From: Dictyostelium discoideum
Taxonomy: Eukaryota
Reading direction: 5' to 3'
Assembly: GCA_000004695.1 (NCBI GenBank)
Contig: CM000152.2
Span: forward strand, 64,001 to 128,000
DNA length: 64,000 bases
Positions 4,797 through 64,000 of this stretch are shown here, piece by piece; positions within the stretch are counted from its first letter, which is position 1; the number at the start of each line of letters is the position of its first letter. The position numbers were made by a program, and so were the translations under genes. Below the pieces are notes generated by a model that searched no databases, was not told the origin of the DNA, and was given only the letters and a program-made list of their open reading frames with translations.

Positions 4797-5429
4797 CTAT
4801 ATTAGTAATGTTATAGTAACTATCATTAATATTAAAAAATTTATATTATAAAATGTCTGTATTTTTATAATCAGTGAAAATGGTAAAGACGGTGATGACG
4901 ATGACGATAAAAGTAATATTGAACCAGTAAAATTAAATATTGAGAGATTACATTGTTTTGTTTTACAGAATGAAGATGGTATTAAAGGTGAGCTACAAAA
5001 AAAGTTTACACATTTAGACTCTTCATTACATTTACTCTTGGCAATACATGAAGACGGATTAATAGAGTAAATATCTGAGCAATTTACTTTATTTCTGTCA
5101 AGACATGAAAAAAATACTACTGCACTTTGTTGACAAAATGCCCCTTGAAATCTCCCTCTAGTAGTACAATATCCTACACCTGATTGTGGATCACACTATT
5201 TTTTTTTAAATTTAAAAAATTATAAATAAAAATACTAAAAGCTCAATTATAATAAATTAACCTTTACCTTACAAAATTCATATTCTAAACAATCTTTTTT
5301 TGAAATACATGCTCTTGGGTAACTAATGGGAAGTGGAGTGCATTTCCCCAATACACTTCCTTTAAATAAAGGTTTACACTAAAATAAAAAATTAACAATA
5401 TTAATAATACTAATATTATTAATAATAAT

Positions 5430-23205: not shown

Positions 23206-23758
23206 ATGATCTCCAAATTCTCTCTCTTTGTCGAAATCGGACGTGTTGTTGTCATCAACTATGGTGAATACATCAACAAAACTGCCGTCATCATTGATGT
23301 CTTGGATCAAAACAGAGTATGTATTTCACACAATCAATTTGGGTTGTTGGTATGAAATTAAAGAACTAACAAAATTATTTATTATTAATAATTAGGCTTT
23401 AGTTGCTGGTCCACACAGTGGCGTCGAACGTCACATCATTAACTTCAAATGGATCAATCTTACTCCATTAAAAGTTAACATCCAAAGAGGTGCCAGAATT
23501 AACACCCTCATCGCTGCCATCAAAGCTGCTGACCTCGAAACCAAAATTGCTGCCCTCTCTGCCGTTAAGAAAATCAACGCAAGAGCCACCAAATCAAACC
23601 AAACTGATTTCGAACGTTTCAAAGCCAACCTCATCAGACGTAAACTCAACAAGAAAGTTTCAGGTGAAGTTAAGAAATTAGTTAACATTGCCAACAGAGC
23701 TGCTCACAAGAAAGCTGTTGCCCAAAAAGCTGCTGGTCACGTCAAGAAAACTTTATAA
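23206..23758 (+). CDS. rpl14: 60S ribosomal protein L14 (eukaryotic L14e, KOW domain), 157 aa; exons 23206..23316 and 23396..23758
   Basis: Translation is [37 protein letters not shown]|[59 protein letters not shown]..., the RPL14e signature. Codon usage (GCC/ATC/AAC/GTC rich) is typical of highly expressed Dictyostelium genes. Donor AGA|GTATGT, acceptor taattag|, phase 0. Confidence 0.85.
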
Positions 23759-31253: not shown

Positions 31254-31592
31254 AAAGTACACATTGATTTGATATACTAATATTTTTTATTTATAAAAAA
31301 AAAAAAAAAAAAAATATAGTATGACTCAATGAATAAAACAACAACAACAGTAACTCAAGTTGTTGTTCAACCAGTTTACCAAGGTTCACCACAACAACAA
31401 CCATACGGTGCCCCACCACAACAACCATACGGTGCTCCACCACAACAACCATACGGTGCTCCACCACAACAACCATACGGTGCTCCACCACAACAACCAT
31501 ACGGTGCTCCACCACCACAACCATATGGTGCTCCACCACCAGGCGCATATGCTCCACAAGGCAATTACCCACCACCATATGGTCCACAATAA
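30751..31592 (+). CDS. TM2-domain protein with PQ-rich repeat tail, ~151 aa; exons 30751..30800, 30986..31059, 31151..31206, 31320..31592
   Basis: The spliced product is MSQKSVCVTYLLWLFFG-IHRFYLNRPCSGVLYLFTCGCFFIG-GWFIDICLIPGMVEDYNAK-YDSMNKTTTTVTQVVVQPVYQGSPQQQPYGAPPQQPYGAP(x6)...GPQ. The HRFYL...GGWFIDI core matches the TM2 domain consensus (G.DRFYLG...G.GIW.LID.I). Donors are GG|GTAAAA, G|GTAAAT and AAA|GTAAGT, all acceptors are T-rich ...tag/cag|, and phases are consistent (2,1,0). The C-terminal tail is 6 tandem PQQPYGAP units. Confidence 0.5.
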
Positions 31593-31738
31593 AGTAAAAC
31601 TATTTATTTCAAATAAAAAAAAAAATAAATAATGATAATAATAAAAATAATATGAAAAATTAAATAAAATATTATTTAAATAAAAAAAAAAAAAAAAATG
31701 TTCAAATTAAAAATATTGGATATTTTCAGATTTTCAGG

Positions 31739-55613: not shown

Positions 55614-58566
<2,953 letters not shown>

Positions 58567-58658: not shown

Positions 58659-61060
58659 TAGTTTTAATTTAGTAATATCTCTAGAAGATGATAATAAATT
58701 TGAATTATATTATTCAAATTCAGTTTCACCATTTTCAAGTGACGGATTTATTAGATCATTCTATGATATTGGTAAATGGGTATTTGGAAATTTAAATAAT
58801 CAAGAAGAAGAAGGTGATCAACTAGTGAAAATGAAAAGTTATTTTTCATTTTTAAGAATTTTAAGTGAATTAAGTTGGTTTTGTAATATTTTAGGTAGTG
58901 GTAATGTTCACAATTCAATTGTTTATAATGAATTAAATATTTATTATTATTTAAAAATGCTTTTACCATTATTGAATGATATTAAAATTAATGTTTTTCA
59001 TTATCAAATCCAAAATGATATATTTGCAAAAATTATCATTGGAAATACTCAATACAATATTATTAATTTAATTGAACCAAATCATATTGATGATCCATTT
59101 TCAATGGTTCAATATCATTTATATATTATGGAACTTGAAAAAATTGAAACAAGTGATGTATGTATATTACTTATTTATTTTTTATTTAATTATTTAAATA
59201 TTATATTAACATTGCCTGATATCAATTGTACATATATAGAAATTCACATGTTTAAGAAAGCAATTTAATCAAAGACCACAAAAACAATCAAAGATATTTG
59301 AAATTCCAAATCCTAATAATTCAATCGATGAAATATTAATTGAACCAACATTAATTGTTCAAGATATAAATACATCATTTCAATTTTTTAAAGTAAATGG
59401 TATAATTAAAACAATTGAAGATTTTAATCAAGAAAAAGAGTGAGTATTTGATTTGTACCATAAATTTTATTTTAAATCATTATTAATTATTAATTTTTAT
59501 TATTTTTTCTAAAAAAAAAAACAGTTATAGTAATATTATTATTTTAAGATCATTTTTATATTTCTTGCAATACCTTTTCAAGAATCCATCAAAAACAACA
59601 TTATTAGTTTTATTTGATATTAGGAAAATTGATTTTGATAATATTAATTCTTCAAACGATATTGATAATGAAAGCATACCTCAATATTTATGTTTTGATT
59701 TCTTATATTTTATCAAACAAATGTATGGAATTGATATATATTTCCAATTTGTAAGTATTTATAAAACTTTTATTAAGATCAATAATTTTTTAAATATTAT
59801 TTATTGTATTATTTATTAATTTTTTTAATTTTTAAAAAAAAAAAAAAGGAAGATTTTTTGGAAATAATATCAACTAGACCATCAATAGTATCAAATATCA
59901 TTCAATCAAATAAAAAAAAGATATTAAATGATATTATTTGCATGGATATTATTGAAAATGATATATCAATGAAAGATGTATTTTATTTACTTTCTGTTGA
60001 TATTATAAAAACAATTTCACCAACAGTAAATTTAGTTATTTATGATAAAAGAGTAATGTATTATTATTATTGTTTTTTATAATGATTTAAATTAACAAAA
60101 TTTTTAACAATCAATTTTATTATTATTATAGTACTATATTCAAAAAGAAGTTGGATCAATTTCAAAAATTAGAGAATGGAAAAAGTTTGGAATTATATCT
60201 TCACATCCAGATGCAGTGGTTTTTTTAAAATATGGTAAAAAAGATTTAAAATCAGCAATGTTGGATAATGGTAAAGTGAATGATGAAAATTATTATGGTA
60301 TTGCTGTTGAGGATTATATGAAATCTAATGAATTAAATATACTCTATTATTTATTGAGTAAACAAGAAGAACCAGATTTCACCAATATTGAAAGATATTA
60401 TTTGGAAAATGATAAAATCTATGCAATGTTTCCATATGTCAATGGTAGTTGCAATTTATCTGAAATTGATAATTTAAATGAAATGGATTTACTCAACATA
60501 TTATATCAACTTTGTTTTCAATTACATCAATTGGAAAATCTTGGTATATTTCATAGAGATGTTAAACCTGAAAATATAATTTCTCTAAGATATGGAAATG
60601 GTGGAATCGTGGTATTTATAGTTGATTTCGGTATATCACAATACAAAGGAAAACATTTAGAAAATTATTATTCACGTGATGGTACATTTGGATATCAAGC
60701 TCCAGTAAGTATTTAAATACTATATTTATCTTAAATAGTTTAAACTAATTCACATTTTTAATTTTAACATTAAAAGGAAATTTATAGAGAAGAGTTGAGA
60801 GGTGATGGTGATATTAAAACTCAAAAATATAAAATGGATGTTTTCAGTTTAGGTTGCACTATGGCTTTTTTAATTAAAAAGTTTAATATTACATCAACAT
60901 ACTTAAACGATTTCATTGATAATATGACACAACCTCATGTATGTAAATCATTTAAAAAATAAACTGAAAAAAAAAAAAAAAAAAACTAATATTTTTTTAG
61001 TATAACGATCGTTTTAGTATAGACCAATGTTTAGAAATAATAAAAAGTTGGAAAAAATGA
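58659..61060 (+). CDS. Second kinase unit with C-terminal canonical kinase domain; exons ~58659(or ATG 58831)..59157, 59240..59439, 59525..59750, 59849..60052, 60132..60704, 60777..60938, 61001..61060
   Basis: The kinase domain spans exons 5-7 (…LCFQLHQLENLGIFHRDVKPENIISLRYGNGGIVVFIVDFGISQYKGKHLENYYSRDGTFGYQAP | EIYREELRGDGDIKTQKYKMDVFSLGCTMAFLI… | YNDRFSIDQCLEIIKSWKK*). It has HRDVKPEN, DFG and APE motifs. Donors are GTATGT, GTGAGT, GTAAGT, GTAATG, GTAAGT and GTATGT, and acceptors are all AT-rich ...ag. Whether this is a separate gene starting at ATG 58831 or the 3' half of the 55614 gene is unresolved. Confidence 0.5.
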
Positions 61061-61178
61061 TAATAACTTGGATTTATTTTTTTTTTTTTTAGTGGTGAAT
61101 ATCCAAAAATATTTATTTAATTTTAAATACCACAAATATAAAATAAAAAAAAAATAAAAAATAAAAAATAAAAAAAAA

Positions 61179-61210
<32 letters not shown>

Positions 61211-61277
61211 ATATATAAATAAATAAATAAATAATACTTGTATAATTTAAATTATTTACTTATTTGATTTTATTTGA

Positions 61278-61309
<32 letters not shown>

Positions 61310-61578
61310 TTCTATAAATAGAATACTCCAAACATCAAAAAATAAAAAATAGAAATGATTAATAAAATAAGTAAATTTTAAAAAAGGAAAAAAAATAAAA
61401 TAAATTATTTTTTTGAAGATAATTTTTTTATTTTTTTTTATTTTTTTTTTTTTAAAATTTCATTTTTTTTAATTTTTTTTTTTTTTATTTTATTTTTTTT
61501 TAATTTTTTTTTTTTTTTTTTTAATTGAAACACATTATTATTGTTGTAGTAACATATTAAGATTAATCAAATAAAAAG

Positions 61579-62281
61579 ATGTCATTAAAAATTTTAGTAC
61601 CAATTAAACGTGTTGTTGATTATGCAGTAAAGATTAGAGTAAAAGGTGATAAATCAGGTGTTGAAACAGCAAATGTAAAGATGAGTATGAACCCATTCGA
61701 TGAGATTGCAGTTGAAGAAGCAATCAGAATTAAAGAGAAAAATTTAGCAAAAGAGATCATTGCAGTTTCAATGGGACCAAAAACATCACAAGAAACAATT
61801 AGAACTGCAATTGCAATGGGTGCAGATAAAGGTATTCACGTTGAAACCACTGCTGAATTACAACCATTAAGTGTTGCAAAATTATTAAAAGAATTAGTTG
61901 ATAAAGAGAAACCAAATTTAATCATTCTTGGTAAACAAGCAATTGATGATGATTGTAATCAAACTGCTCAAATGTTAGCTGGTTTATTAAATTGGCCACA
62001 AGGTAATTTAATATATATTTAATATTATTATATAAAGTTTTTACTAATTTCAATAATAATAATTTAGCAACATTTGCATCAAAGGTTGATATTAAAGATG
62101 ATAGTGTACATGTTACTCGTGAAATTGATGGTGGTTTAGAAACACTTTCAATGAAATTACCAGCTATAATTTCATGTGACCTTAGATTAAATGAACCAAG
62201 ATATGCAAAATTACAAAATATGTAAGTATTAAATATTTATTTTATTTTTTTATTTTATTTTTAAATAAATAAATTAATTAA

Positions 62282-62330
<49 letters not shown>

Positions 62331-62515
62331 ATAATTATAGTATGAAATCTAAAAAAGCAGAATTAAAAGTTGAAACACCAGAAAGCCTTAATGTCGATAC
62401 TAATTGCAATCTTAAAATTATTTCAGTTGAAGAACCACCAAAGAGATCAGGTGGTGTAAAAGTTGAAAGCGTTGAAAATGTTGTTGAAGCACTTAAAAAG
62501 CATGCTTTAATTTAA
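61579..62515 (+). CDS. etfb: Electron transfer flavoprotein beta subunit (ETF-beta), ~250 aa; exons 61579..62002, 62068..62221, 62341..62515
   Basis: [22 protein letters not shown]...[17 protein letters not shown]...AVSMGP...[25 protein letters not shown]|[52 protein letters not shown]|[10 protein letters not shown]... is colinear with ETFB. The NIMKAKKK junction is conserved with human ETFB. Donors are G|GTAATT and AT|GTAAGT, acceptors are aatttag| and ataattatag|, and phases are consistent (1,2). Confidence 0.85.
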
Positions 62516-62885
62516 ATTTAAAATATAAAATAAAATAAAATAAAATAAAATAAAATAAAATAAAATAAAATAAAATAATATTAGTAACATATAAAAATAA
62601 ATAATTTTTTTTTTTAACGTATTAAATTGATTTTCGTGTTGACATTCTTTGCATTTTCCCACATCATGATAATCTTTAAATAAAAATAAACAATTTCCAA
62701 TAAAAACTAAAAAAAAAAGAAAAAAAAAAAAAATATCTTGTTTTTTTTTTTTTAATTATTTTTTTTTTTTTAATTATTTTTTTTTTTTTAAATTGAGAGG
62801 TTTTTTTTTTTTTTTTTATAATTTTTAAACTTTCTTTAAAATATTTTCACACACATACATCAACAACAACCACCACAAATATACA

Positions 62886-64000
62886 ATGGATGTCGATGAC
62901 TCTTTACACCAAGATACTTTGGTAAGTTTTTTTTATTTTTTTTATTTTTTTCAATTTTTTTAATAAATAAATAAATAAATAAATAATTAATTTTTATTAT
63001 TTATTTATATATATATATGTATACTTAGGATGATAAATTTTATTCAATTTTAAAAAATATTTCATCACCAAATAGACAAGAAAGATATGAAGCAGTTCAA
63101 TGTGTTAGAAAAATTTTATCTGTTGGTATGTTTTTTTTTTTATTTTTAATTTTTTAAAATAAAATAAAATAAATAAATAATTAACCATTTCTTTTTTTTT
63201 TTTTTTTTTATTAAGAAAATAATCCACCAATTGATAGAGTTATTAGTTCAGGATTAGTACCAATTTTACATAGATATTTAGTTGATGAAACAGATACATC
63301 AATTCAATATGAAGCATCATGGGCATTAACAAATGTTGCATCAGGATCATCAGAACATACAAATTATATTGTAGAGAATGAAATTCATAAGAGTATAATT
63401 GATTTATTATCAACCAGTAATAATATTGACTTTTTAGAACAAAACATTTGGGCATTAGGTAATATCATTGGTGATTCATCACAAAATAGAGATAGTATAC
63501 TCAACGAGGGTATAGTATTACATTTGGTGGAGATATTGAAAACTCATACAAAGAAATCACTAGTTTCAAATATAAGTTGGACCATTAGTAATCTATGTCG
63601 TGGCACACCACGTCCAGCATTTAGATTCATTAAGCCACTATTACCATCCATAAAGAGTTTACTCTTGACTTGGCATAAAGAGGCGGACATCGTGTCAGAC
63701 ACGTTGTGGGCGTTATCATTCTTGACTGAGTCGACCTCTGAGGAGAAAGAGATCTTTAGTAATGTCATATCGATGGGATTGGCAGAGATCATCATTGAAA
63801 TCATTTTCAAATCCGATCAAAACAGTTGCATTATACCTGGATTTCGTACCATTGGTAATATGCTCTCGGGTCCTGACGATGTTACAGAGTTTTTGTTACA
63901 ATCTAATGTATTGAAAGTGTTTCCTAAATTTTTATCATCACCAAAAGCCTCATTGGTGAAGGAGGGTTATTGGTGTTTGTCAAATATTACCAGTGGTCCA
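62886..64000 (+). CDS. Importin-alpha-like armadillo-repeat protein lacking an obvious IBB domain (partial, runs off window end); exons 62886..62921, 63029..63125, 63216..>64000
   Basis: ARM repeats carry importin-alpha signatures (ERYEAVQCVRKILSVENNPPIDRVISSGLVPILHRYL; EASWALTNVASGSSEHTNYIV; NIWALGNIIGDSSQNRDSIL; SNISWTISNLCRG; TLWALSFLTE). The N-terminus (MDVDDSLHQDTL-DDKFYSILK...) has no basic IBB segment. Donors are TTG|GTAAGT and G|GTATGT, acceptors are acttag| and tattaag|, and phases are consistent. Confidence 0.65.

Follow-up and report, generated by a model that had tools for sequence, protein, structure and literature searches.

A narrow rise in third-position GC within one exon of the Dictyostelium discoideum importin-alpha-like gene DDB_G0277993, and its possible origin in GC-biased gene conversion

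The stretch of Dictyostelium discoideum DNA analyzed here (the window) comprises 64,000 nt and ends within DDB_G0277993, a gene that lies in a syntenic position downstream of ETF-beta and encodes an importin-alpha-like ARM-repeat protein without an IBB domain. The spliced protein corresponds to the P0074/Q54YZ3 match and is orthologous end to end with its dictyostelid homologs. A Pfam search of the product identified the Arm repeat only (E = 7.8e-26) and no IBB (PF01749), which the canonical importin-alpha matches do carry; since the importin-alpha family is defined by IBB plus ARM and this product contains ARM repeats alone, "importin-alpha-like" is the best name for it. No other Dictyostelium protein with more than about 50% identity to the product was found in a protein search, a literature search found no papers on the gene identifier, and a tRNA scan found no tRNA genes in the window. 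The parts of the gene and the features discussed below are listed in Table 1. In the matching locus (L008) of an independent assembly, the domain of raised third-position GC (GC3) in exon 3 ends ~430 nt, and the stop codon lies ~657 nt, past the point that corresponds to the window end.

Table 1. Coordinates of DDB_G0277993 and of features within it (positions in the window)
Feature	Coordinates	Strand	Remarks
Exon 1	62886..62921	+	ATG, 12 codons, then GTAAGT donor; read from sequence
Intron 1			107 nt, confirmed
Exon 2	63029..63125	+	32 codons plus 1 nt, then GTATGT donor
Intron 2	63126-63215
Exon 3, 5' part	63216..63499	+	Third positions of the usual, strongly AT-rich kind (GC3 0.03-0.2)
Exon 3, raised-GC3 domain	63500..64000	+	Starts at the change point; continues beyond the window
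Hump core	63600..63850	+	GC3 0.6-0.65 in AX4; GAG, TTG, NCG and C-ending codons plentiful
Codon 168	63584..63586	+	D. purpureum intron (apparent GC-AG), missing in D. discoideum, D. citrinum and D. firmibasis
F182/I183 boundary	63628..63629	+	Phase-0 intron common to T. lacteum and P. violaceum, absent here; 5' edge of core
Codon G253	63839..63841	+	Second D. purpureum intron, absent here; 3' edge of core
Antisense open frame	63547..63816	-	~90 codons; third positions coincide with sense third positions; not judged a gene
GTCGAC 63730, AGATCT 63750, ATCGAT 63769	63730..63774		Sites vary among orthologs

A first-pass annotation of the window had described an abrupt, in-frame shift in codon usage near 63480, across which the protein stays ARM-like, and our analysis confirmed that the compositional shift in exon 3 is real. 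The maximum-likelihood change point was 63500, with a GC3 of 0.36 inside and 0.08 outside (log-likelihood ratio 26). In 40-codon windows GC3 climbed from 0.025 (63215-63334) to 0.625 (63665-63784), the overall figure for the exon being a rise from 0.03 to 0.63-0.65, and then fell back to 0.33 (63875-63994). The onset near 63500 is close to the position described earlier, but the profile is that of a hump rather than a step. Third positions alone shift, with GC at codon positions 1 and 2 remaining flat (0.29-0.45) across the exon. The rise goes beyond a null distribution drawn from 20 other long ORFs in the 64,000 nt (797 windows, mean 0.143, maximum 0.40), GC3 never exceeded 0.50 in the other real coding frames, and permutation of third positions inside the exon never gave a value as high as that observed (0/5000).

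The use of rare codons downstream of ~63480 was likewise borne out. Codons between 63480 and 64000 include 10 GAG versus 1 GAA and six NCG, and 34 of 173 end in G and 26 of 173 in C; between 63215 and 63479 there are one GAG, six GAA and no NCG, with 2/89 ending in G and 4/89 in C. In the pooled ORFs of the window NCG accounts for 27 of 5095 codons, and the GAG:GAA ratio is 46:252. Within the hump the third position is G in 24 and C in 21 codons, and 6 of 100 are NCG, whereas the exon at 23396-23755, which is of a highly expressed type, has 43 C and 6 G. Twofold codons ending in C, twofold codons ending in G, and fourfold codons ending in either rise jointly. This differs from the signature of translational selection, in which preferred C-ending codons are used gene-wide and rare G-ending codons are not, since the hump is local and includes both G-ending and NCG codons.

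Total GC, measured in 150-nt windows, is 0.25-0.29 at 63250-63500 and reaches 0.46 at 63600-63749, compared with a mean of 0.219 for the window. The earlier statement that GC here is well above the rest of the window is correct in that the region falls within the top 1% of 300-nt windows, but it is not unique in this respect, with similar values near 31300 (0.45, in a proline/glutamine repeat ORF) and 23400 (0.42). What is unique in the window is in-frame GC3 with G-ending codons, not total GC. A six-frame scan gave many other apparent GC3 peaks, for example at 31354-31600, that were off-frame readings of trinucleotide or proline/glutamine repeats.

Comparison of positions 59000-64000 with an independent chromosome-level assembly gave 0 mismatches, and the hump was present at the same syntenic locus in five other genomes. 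Its GC3 was ~0.85 in two other D. discoideum isolates (0.80-0.87 in the core), ~0.5 in D. cf. discoideum and D. citrinum and 0.4 in D. firmibasis; that is, it gets stronger along the tree. It was absent from the D. purpureum, T. lacteum and P. violaceum orthologs, though the protein region is conserved, and a degenerate-pattern scan of metagenome contigs yielded no further orthologs. In an isolate with a GC3 of 0.85, neighboring ORFs within +/-10 kb, one of them 2830 codons long, did not exceed 0.23. The hump is narrow, about 0.6-0.9 kb wide, and internal to one exon. In two D. discoideum assemblies the distance from this locus to a contig end is ~0.2 Mb.

These comparisons bear on the origins first proposed for the segment, namely a chimeric assembly, an engineered or recoded cassette, and a horizontally acquired 3' portion. 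Composition, and nothing further, speaks for an origin of this sort or for contamination. A chimera or contamination is excluded by the agreement with the independent assembly and by the syntenic hump in the other genomes, and engineering by the same hump in wild isolates and by the unremarkable frequency of restriction sites. Horizontal acquisition is excluded by the full-length orthology, and BLASTN of 63480-64000 against plasmids and phages found no match. The restriction sites that had been described as clustered do exist and are naturally variable, but GC-containing 6-bp palindromes are not enriched (5 observed versus 5.8 +/- 2.4 in shuffles, P = 0.69). A search of 63200-64000 for direct and inverted repeats gave one trivial 14-nt pair only. 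Because the orthologs carry the same rare codons, readings that invoke foreign origin fail; the segment is native coding sequence of the ARM-repeat gene, and we give artefact or foreign DNA almost no credence.

The hump also differs from its flanks in how fast and in which direction it has changed. Synonymous divergence between AX4 and another isolate was 0.222 in the hump, versus 0.049 in the 5' flank and 0.074 in the 3' flank, a three- to fivefold difference whose ordering was identical in all pairs. At 31 hump sites AX4 has A/T where both other isolates have G/C, and the reverse occurs at 0 sites; the corresponding counts for the flanks are 21 and 20 (Fisher P = 1.4e-6). All three outgroups share the AX4 state at 16 of the 31 sites. 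Changes were polarized by taking the state common to D. citrinum and D. firmibasis as ancestral. A/T-to-G/C (W>S) changes per W site then amounted to 0.025-0.05 in the 5' part of the exon and to 0.18 (AX4) and 0.43-0.46 (other isolates) in the hump, 4-18 times the 5' value; parsimony polarization may inflate W>S in AT-rich genomes, but the isolate-specific excess cannot be produced in that way. The S>W rate per S site was unchanged (0.10-0.23). The implied equilibrium GC3 is 0.43 (AX4) or 0.76-0.82 (other isolates) in the hump and 0.12-0.22 in the 5' part.

The same direction was seen at replacement sites, with 7-8 W>S and 0 S>W changes at positions 1 and 2 in the hump, although these numbers are small. 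The counts of T>C (14) and A>G (15) indicate a strand-symmetric process. Within the hump, differences private to either of two close isolates were also W>S (6-7) rather than S>W (1), and one site was hit twice independently. As background, BLAST-anchored site maps gave 42 W>S and 30 S>W changes over 52.7-63.6 kb of the window; a whole-locus MAFFT alignment was discarded because it was noisy at low complexity and misaligned the downstream gene in one isolate. A second apparent W>S cluster, at 56700-57199, consisted of six differences crowded into 10 bp where two alignment blocks meet, and was treated as an alignment artefact. In a comparison of the four close sequences, 51 sites were congruent and 1 was incongruent; this gave no sign of recombination, but four sequences are uninformative on that point.

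The concentration of AX4-isolate divergence in one short tract is what would be seen if GC-rich haplotypes had been imported by conversion from a GC-richer donor, whether an unsampled species (by introgression), an unrecognized paralog or a retrocopy. We consider this improbable. A donor tract should differ in both directions, and 31 of 31 differences run one way; the hump grew also on the D. discoideum stem, in D. citrinum and in D. firmibasis; and the GC-richness of the donor itself would still have to be explained. The protein search found no close paralog, and so conversion from a paralog, which the first-pass annotation had raised alongside conversion from another genome, is unlikely. Its suggestion of gene conversion holds up only in a different form, as allelic, GC-biased conversion in place.

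Another explanation to be weighed is selection on silent sites for mRNA or translation, either because grouped rare codons would slow the ribosome while the ARM repeats fold or because local GC in the transcript is itself favored. Conserved clusters of rare codons have reportedly been suggested to set the pace at which proteins fold during translation (Clarke & Clark 2008; Chaney et al. 2017). Like such clusters, the hump is a local run of genome-rare codons that occupies the identical place in six related genomes; moreover, it is limited to coding sequence, and the rarest codons, NCG and GAG, are abundant in it. However, its silent sites evolve faster, not slower as is expected of a pause cluster, and the common C-ending codons, typical of the highly expressed-type exon in the window, rise alongside the rare G-ending ones. 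Replacement sites are biased in the same way, the distant orthologs of D. purpureum, T. lacteum and P. violaceum share the fold without the hump, and folding of the core RNA on either strand was no better than that of shuffles (z = -0.8 and -0.65). In our judgment, the fixation of 31 silent changes in one direction along a single short branch would demand selection of implausible strength at each site. The codons inferred by De Oliveira et al. to be preferred in D. discoideum are not GC-rich (PMC8321536). In view of this, we regard silent-site selection as quite unlikely.

We think it very improbable that an overlapping functional element, whether a protein-coding gene on the opposite strand or a structured non-coding RNA, raises the GC. 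An open antisense frame does span the core and is the sole overlapping ORF, with 88 aa and a TTG start codon. A stop arises in this frame only where a sense third position of T or C precedes TA or CA. By our own reasoning such stops become rare when position 3 is rich in G/C, so that a frame sharing its third positions with the sense frame would open automatically at high GC3; we judged it a by-product. No Rfam match was found in the hump at E <= 1, and the three weak sub-threshold matches obtained gene-wide at a permissive threshold all lie downstream of it. RNA stability was not in excess on either strand, and the fast turnover of the sites that confer the GC argues against constraint.

The core of the hump sits between intron positions that are occupied in outgroups and empty here (Table 1). 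Judging from the sequences compared, the two D. purpureum introns may have been lost here or gained in D. purpureum. The hump is entirely exonic, with no non-coding DNA inside it, and the introns 300-600 nt upstream are not enriched in GC. Ma et al. 2015 reported that, genome-wide, Dictyostelium exons beside lost introns have a higher GC content, which they explained by hotspots of gene conversion (PMC4683709). Our case resembles theirs in the organisms, in the association and in the interpretation. Their result is a genome-wide statistical shift in total GC, whereas here one locus is resolved site by site, so that the direction and rate of change, the lineages concerned and the continuing activity can be followed, and the GC3 of the hump (0.65-0.87) is far above any average effect.

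The overlap with absent introns is also suggestive of cDNA-templated events at the hump, and with it of a local mutational bias from A/T to G/C in which transmission is unbiased, candidate causes being error-prone synthesis during repeated repair at a fragile site and repeated conversion with error-bearing cDNA. Such a bias would account just as well for the elevated rate and its W>S direction and would reconcile the locus with the reported absence of genome-wide GC-biased gene conversion (gBGC) in this organism (PMC8321536). Nevertheless, known spontaneous mutation spectra are AT-biased (see also the discussion in PMC8321536), strand-symmetric transitions are ill-suited to an RNA-strand-specific process, and the changes that two close isolates continue to accumulate separately could not have come from one round of intron loss. 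This makes mutational bias, in our view, an unlikely account.

We lean towards the interpretation that the hump is a narrow, long-lived hotspot of gBGC, with recombination and biased mismatch repair inferred as its cause. As expected of gBGC, W>S changes are in excess over the flanks (31:0 versus 21:20), and the rate is raised in a tract under 1 kb long while neighbors within +/-10 kb are flat. The process would be predicted to enrich nearby non-coding DNA as well, and the unenriched upstream introns are to be set against it. This ~0.6-0.9 kb stretch has long been fixing W>S changes much faster than its surroundings; the process started after the D. purpureum split and is ongoing in some D. 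discoideum isolates, and we propose that a persistent hotspot of recombination or double-strand-break repair is most likely responsible. Mismatches in heteroduplex would be repaired to G/C, and G/C alleles would thus be over-transmitted and fixed whatever the codon preference, with protein constraint confining the effect nearly wholly to silent third positions. The same conversion-prone spot could plausibly have shed its introns through conversion with cDNA. In the AX4/NC4 lineage the drive may be weak or may have lapsed, leaving the hump to decay under the AT-biased mutation of the genome. Published data point both ways. Pessia et al. 2012 found a correlation of -0.94 between chromosome size and GC in D. 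discoideum, consistent with gBGC (PMC5635611). De Oliveira et al. 2021 compared GC with chromosomal position and intron GC with exon GC3, examined the frequencies at which intronic SNPs segregate, and found no genome-wide gBGC signature, which counts against our reading (PMC8321536).

A close counterpart may be found in mammals. The Fxy (Mid1) gene of Mus musculus reportedly spans the pseudoautosomal boundary (Perry & Ashworth 1999; Montoya-Burgos et al. 2003). In both genes GC3 rises sharply in one part of the coding sequence, where W>S changes, some of them altering amino acids, come in a burst and silent sites evolve faster, while the rest of the gene is ordinary. Fxy is known to owe this to its relocation into a region of very high recombination, and its GC-rich part reaches the end of the gene. 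The hump, in contrast, has no known change of chromosomal context, is internal and shorter than 1 kb, and resides in a genome of 22% GC that is reportedly without overall gBGC. Clusters of biased substitutions driven by gBGC have reportedly also been recognized in mammals, birds and yeast, among them many human accelerated regions (Galtier & Duret 2007; Duret & Galtier 2009; both cited in PMC8321536). Like them, the hump is short, evolves at an accelerated rate and is strongly biased to W>S irrespective of site function, but they have been linked to hotspots on recombination maps, and Dictyostelium is without a fine-scale map. Dictyostelium meiosis is not known to rely on Spo11. Holland et al. 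placed the split between D. firmibasis and AX4 at roughly 50-100 million years (PMC12745789). A hump that has kept one position since before that split is closer in this respect to the stable hotspots known from birds and yeast than to the short-lived PRDM9 hotspots. It is possible, although we hold it as a tentative proposal only, that this is a meiotic recombination or conversion hotspot of fixed position, a single sub-kilobase spot active since before D. firmibasis diverged, that has driven silent GC towards ~0.8 in some wild D. discoideum lineages of a 22%-GC genome and is linked to intron removal.

The 31 informative W/S differences in ~500 bp between AX4 and divergent isolates, together with the macrocysts that these isolates reportedly form with AX2 (PMC12745789), would permit a direct test. 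At a locus whose silent sites have reached 65-87% G/C by one-way change, mutation bias is overridden, at least locally, by some strong force that is non-adaptive or unknown. D. discoideum has previously served as a species in which selection on codon usage is inferred without regard to gBGC (PMC8321536). If the hotspot reading is true, gBGC would act in Dictyostelium only at rare, sharp hotspots and be averaged away genome-wide, and in-frame GC3 spikes could map recombination hotspots in an organism not known to possess Spo11. If other such spikes exist, analyses of codon usage and of dN/dS would be biased by them, and they would provide markers of recombination hotspots from sequence only where fine-scale maps are lacking, as well as a concrete, testable case of the link between conversion hotspots and intron loss.

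The window, from Dictyostelium discoideum, has 21.9% G+C overall. Its final kb contains the 5' two-thirds of DDB_G0277993, and the spliced translation matches the hypothetical protein DDB_G0277993 (UniProt Q54YZ3). Pfam found only armadillo repeats in the product and did not find the importin-beta-binding domain that the canonical importin-alpha matches have; the label importin-alpha-like is thus fair, while strict membership of the importin-alpha family does not hold. The remainder of the gene was viewed through the matching locus of an independent chromosome-level assembly (L008), which encodes an identical protein and shows 0 mismatches and two length differences to window positions 59000-64000. 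In L008 coordinates the window ends (64000) at 5115, and the last base of the stop codon is 5772.

Positions of the features discussed (window coordinates unless a locus is named)
Feature	Position	Strand	Remark
Exon 1, DDB_G0277993	62886-62921	+	
Exon 2, DDB_G0277993	63029-63125	+	
Exon 3, DDB_G0277993	from 63216	+	runs past window end
40-codon window	63215-63334		GC3 0.025
40-codon window	63665-63784		GC3 0.625
40-codon window	63875-63994		GC3 0.33
Intron, D. purpureum	63584		AX4 codon 168; apparently GC-AG
Intron, T. lacteum and P. violaceum	63628/63629		AX4 F182/I183; phase 0
Intron, D. purpureum	63839		AX4 G253
Lys/Ala-rich exon	23396-23755	+	in-frame GC3 0.45-0.50
PQQQPYGAP-repeat ORF	31329-31592	+	87 aa
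Difference cluster	57055-57064		
ETF-beta exon	61567-62019		
AAAAT/ATAAA repeats	62520-62575		about eleven copies
3' third of the gene	L008 5239-5772		AX4 residues 351-524
D. purpureum SNLCR region	L005 4985-5100		DICPUDRAFT_153538

The first-pass annotation had described an abrupt change to rare G- and C-ending codons and higher GC from 63480 to 64000. Its codon counts hold, with GAG:GAA going from 1:6 in 63215-63479 to 10:1 in 63480-64000 and NCG codons from 0 to 6; the pooled ORFs of the window (5095 codons) have 46 GAG, 252 GAA and 27 NCG. A two-boundary likelihood fit placed the onset close by, at 63500, and the end about 430 nt past the window end. Measured in 150-nt windows, total G+C is 0.25-0.29 before the rise and 0.46 at 63600-63749, and the shape is a hump with a sharp core (about 63600-63850) rather than a step. 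The rise is real, but total G+C is equally high near 31300, in the PQQQPYGAP-repeat ORF, and near 23400, in the Lys/Ala-rich exon with its classic C-ending bias. Codon positions 1 and 2 stay at 0.29-0.45 GC throughout, and the whole change lies in third positions (GC3). The peak 40-codon window exceeds every one of 797 such windows from 20 long ORFs in the same 64 kb (mean 0.143, maximum 0.40), and 0 of 5000 permutations of the exon's third positions reached the observed value. The three restriction sites that had been reported as clustered here all exist, without enrichment of GC-containing hexamer palindromes (5 observed, 5.8 expected). The ORF of about six tandem PQQQPYGAP copies, ending in PPPYGPQ, has the top total G+C of the window (0.45) and low in-frame GC3; reading it out of frame gives a spurious GC3 of 0.875.

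A protein search found orthologs in other dictyostelids, and peak GC3 was compared in 30-codon windows over the same aligned codons. The gene lies directly 3' of the ETF-beta gene, in the same order in the two other isolates, D. cf. discoideum, D. citrinum and D. firmibasis. The relatives' assemblies appear to belong to a published collection (Holland et al. 2025, PMC12745789), and we infer that CR116C and OT3A, both tropical isolates, are probably the sources of the two divergent D. discoideum assemblies. In two D. discoideum assemblies and D. citrinum (L008, L001, L003) the locus is about 0.17-0.2 Mb away from an end of multi-Mb contigs; that of D. firmibasis is internal (4.1 of 9.4 Mb).

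Protein identity of orthologs and peak GC3 over the aligned codons
Lineage	Identity	Peak GC3
AX4 (lineage of the window)		0.63-0.66
Two other D. discoideum isolates	98%	0.80-0.90
D. cf. discoideum	96%	0.52
D. citrinum	92%	0.55
D. firmibasis	83%	0.41
D. purpureum	52%	0.17-0.28
Tieghemostelium lacteum	46%	0.13-0.27
Polysphondylium violaceum	45%	0.07-0.17

The segment had no match among plasmids, phages and metagenome contigs. This result, together with the synteny, the hump at the same locus in the relatives and the agreement of the independent assembly, excludes the chimeric assembly, contamination, engineered cassette and horizontally acquired 3' portion that had been proposed, and artefact or foreign DNA is hardly credible as a source. 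Conversion from a paralog is unlikely, as the protein search gave no paralogous donor in Dictyostelium above about 50% identity; that a GC-richer donor outside the sampled lineages supplied the hump is quite improbable.

For counts of divergence the hump was taken as AX4 residues 180-350. Between AX4 and another isolate it has 0.222 synonymous codon differences, compared with 0.049 upstream of it and 0.074 downstream, and all eight species pairs follow this order. At 31 hump sites AX4 has A/T and both isolates have G/C, with none of the reverse kind (21 and 20 in the gene flanks; Fisher P = 1.4e-6); the AX4 state is common to all three outgroups at 16 of the 31 and to two of three at 8 more. 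Ancestral states were accepted only where D. citrinum and D. firmibasis agree, so that no tree within the D. discoideum group had to be assumed. A/T-to-G/C (W>S) changes per A/T site were 0.025-0.05 in the 5' part in all lineages (implied equilibrium GC3 0.12-0.22), 0.18 in the AX4 hump (0.43) and 0.43-0.46 in the hump of the two other isolates (0.76-0.82). Since the S>W rate per G/C site is alike everywhere (0.10-0.23), the excess is specific to W>S and reflects neither a general rate increase nor relaxed constraint. In the isolate with GC3 0.85, all other long ORFs within 10 kb on either side, including one of 2830 codons, reach 0.23 at most, and its branch has a polarised background of 42 W>S against 30 S>W over window 52.7-63.6 kb.

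Along the branch to AX4 the hump has 0 W>S and 5 S>W changes and is decaying. The two near-identical isolates show 6-7 further W>S and 1 S>W between them in the hump, and at one site they carry two different G/C replacements, so each has undergone the process recently and on its own. All codon classes are raised (C in pyrimidine-ending and G in purine-ending twofold codons, both at fourfold sites), and codon positions 1 and 2 have 7-8 W>S and 0 S>W, although these changes are few. The process is strand-symmetric, with 14 T>C and 15 A>G changes. A mutational bias towards W>S at this locus, repeated repair from cDNA templates included, is a minor possibility as the source of this excess.

Elsewhere in the gene, the 3' third has 9 W>S to 1 S>W third-position changes on the AX4 lineage, and GC3 around residues 414-444 is slightly higher in AX4 (0.27-0.37) than in the other isolates (0.17-0.26). 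This reverses the pattern of the hump, as though the active zone were not the same in every lineage. The ETF-beta exon is an unusually conserved neighbour (AX4 and the other D. discoideum isolate differ silently at 1/137-1/144 codons, compared with 0.05-0.07 for the kinase gene and the flanks of the ARM gene), with the pentanucleotide repeats right after its stop codon. Where two BLAST blocks join in a low-complexity part of the kinase gene, AX4 and another isolate show six apparent A/T-to-G/C differences in 10 bp, probably an alignment artefact.

Selection on silent sites is unlikely. Expression-linked codon bias predicts a gene-wide rise of C-ending codons, as in the Lys/Ala-rich exon, whose 120 codons have 43 C and 6 G in third position and no NCG, in the pattern expected of a highly expressed gene; in the hump the rarest G-ending codons rise locally. 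The codons inferred to be preferred in D. discoideum are stated as not GC-rich (PMC8321536). If the hump were a functional rare-codon cluster, its silent sites should be conserved and distant orthologs should retain it; the silent sites are faster, and the peaks of D. purpureum, T. lacteum and P. violaceum are low. An overlapping element is very improbable: no Rfam family matched within the hump even at E <= 1, and for neither strand of the core was the fold better than that of dinucleotide shuffles (z = -0.81 and -0.65). The sole overlapping open frame is antisense, runs for about 90 codons and starts with TTG; its third positions fall on the sense third positions, where G/C makes antisense stops automatically rare, and we regard it as a by-product of high GC3.

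Exon 3 lacks introns in D. discoideum, D. citrinum and D. firmibasis, and the AX4 core sits between the outgroup intron positions, a post-hoc observation at a single locus. The simplest account of the intron common to T. lacteum and P. violaceum is that it was ancestral and later lost; for the two D. purpureum introns both loss here and gain there are possible. In the annotated D. purpureum protein the conserved SNLCR residues are missing, a few residues apparently being skipped at the first of its two introns; the DNA encodes them after the apparent GC-AG intron (donor G/GCAAGT), so that the acceptor site seems misplaced in the public gene model. The coincidence of hump and introns does match a genome-wide result: in D. 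discoideum and D. purpureum, Ma et al. 2015 (PMC4683709) saw significantly higher GC in exon sequence beside lost introns, and took this to mean that introns are lost at hotspots of gene conversion.

A tract below 1 kb, acceleration, near-exclusive W>S change, indifference to codon preference, replacement sites behaving alike and strand symmetry together form the recognised signature of GC-biased gene conversion (gBGC) at a recombination hotspot. Mouse Fxy, across the pseudoautosomal boundary, is the classic parallel in one gene. While the substitution pattern is observed directly, its cause is inferred, and we somewhat favor gBGC at a recombination hotspot, of which the hump would be the footprint. 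Against this, de Oliveira et al. 2021 (PMC8321536) applied five coarse tests to D. discoideum and found no evidence of gBGC across the genome; it can be argued that rare, sharp hotspots would escape such tests. For D. discoideum a chromosome-size/GC correlation of -0.94 has been reported (Pessia et al. 2012, PMC5635611). The phenomenon is of a known kind, and a statistical hint of it in Dictyostelium is already published. The hump is an evolutionary footprint and no new molecular system; what is new is an example of extreme magnitude, resolved by site and by lineage, in a genome that serves as a reference free of gBGC, and evidence of continuing activity in wild isolates.
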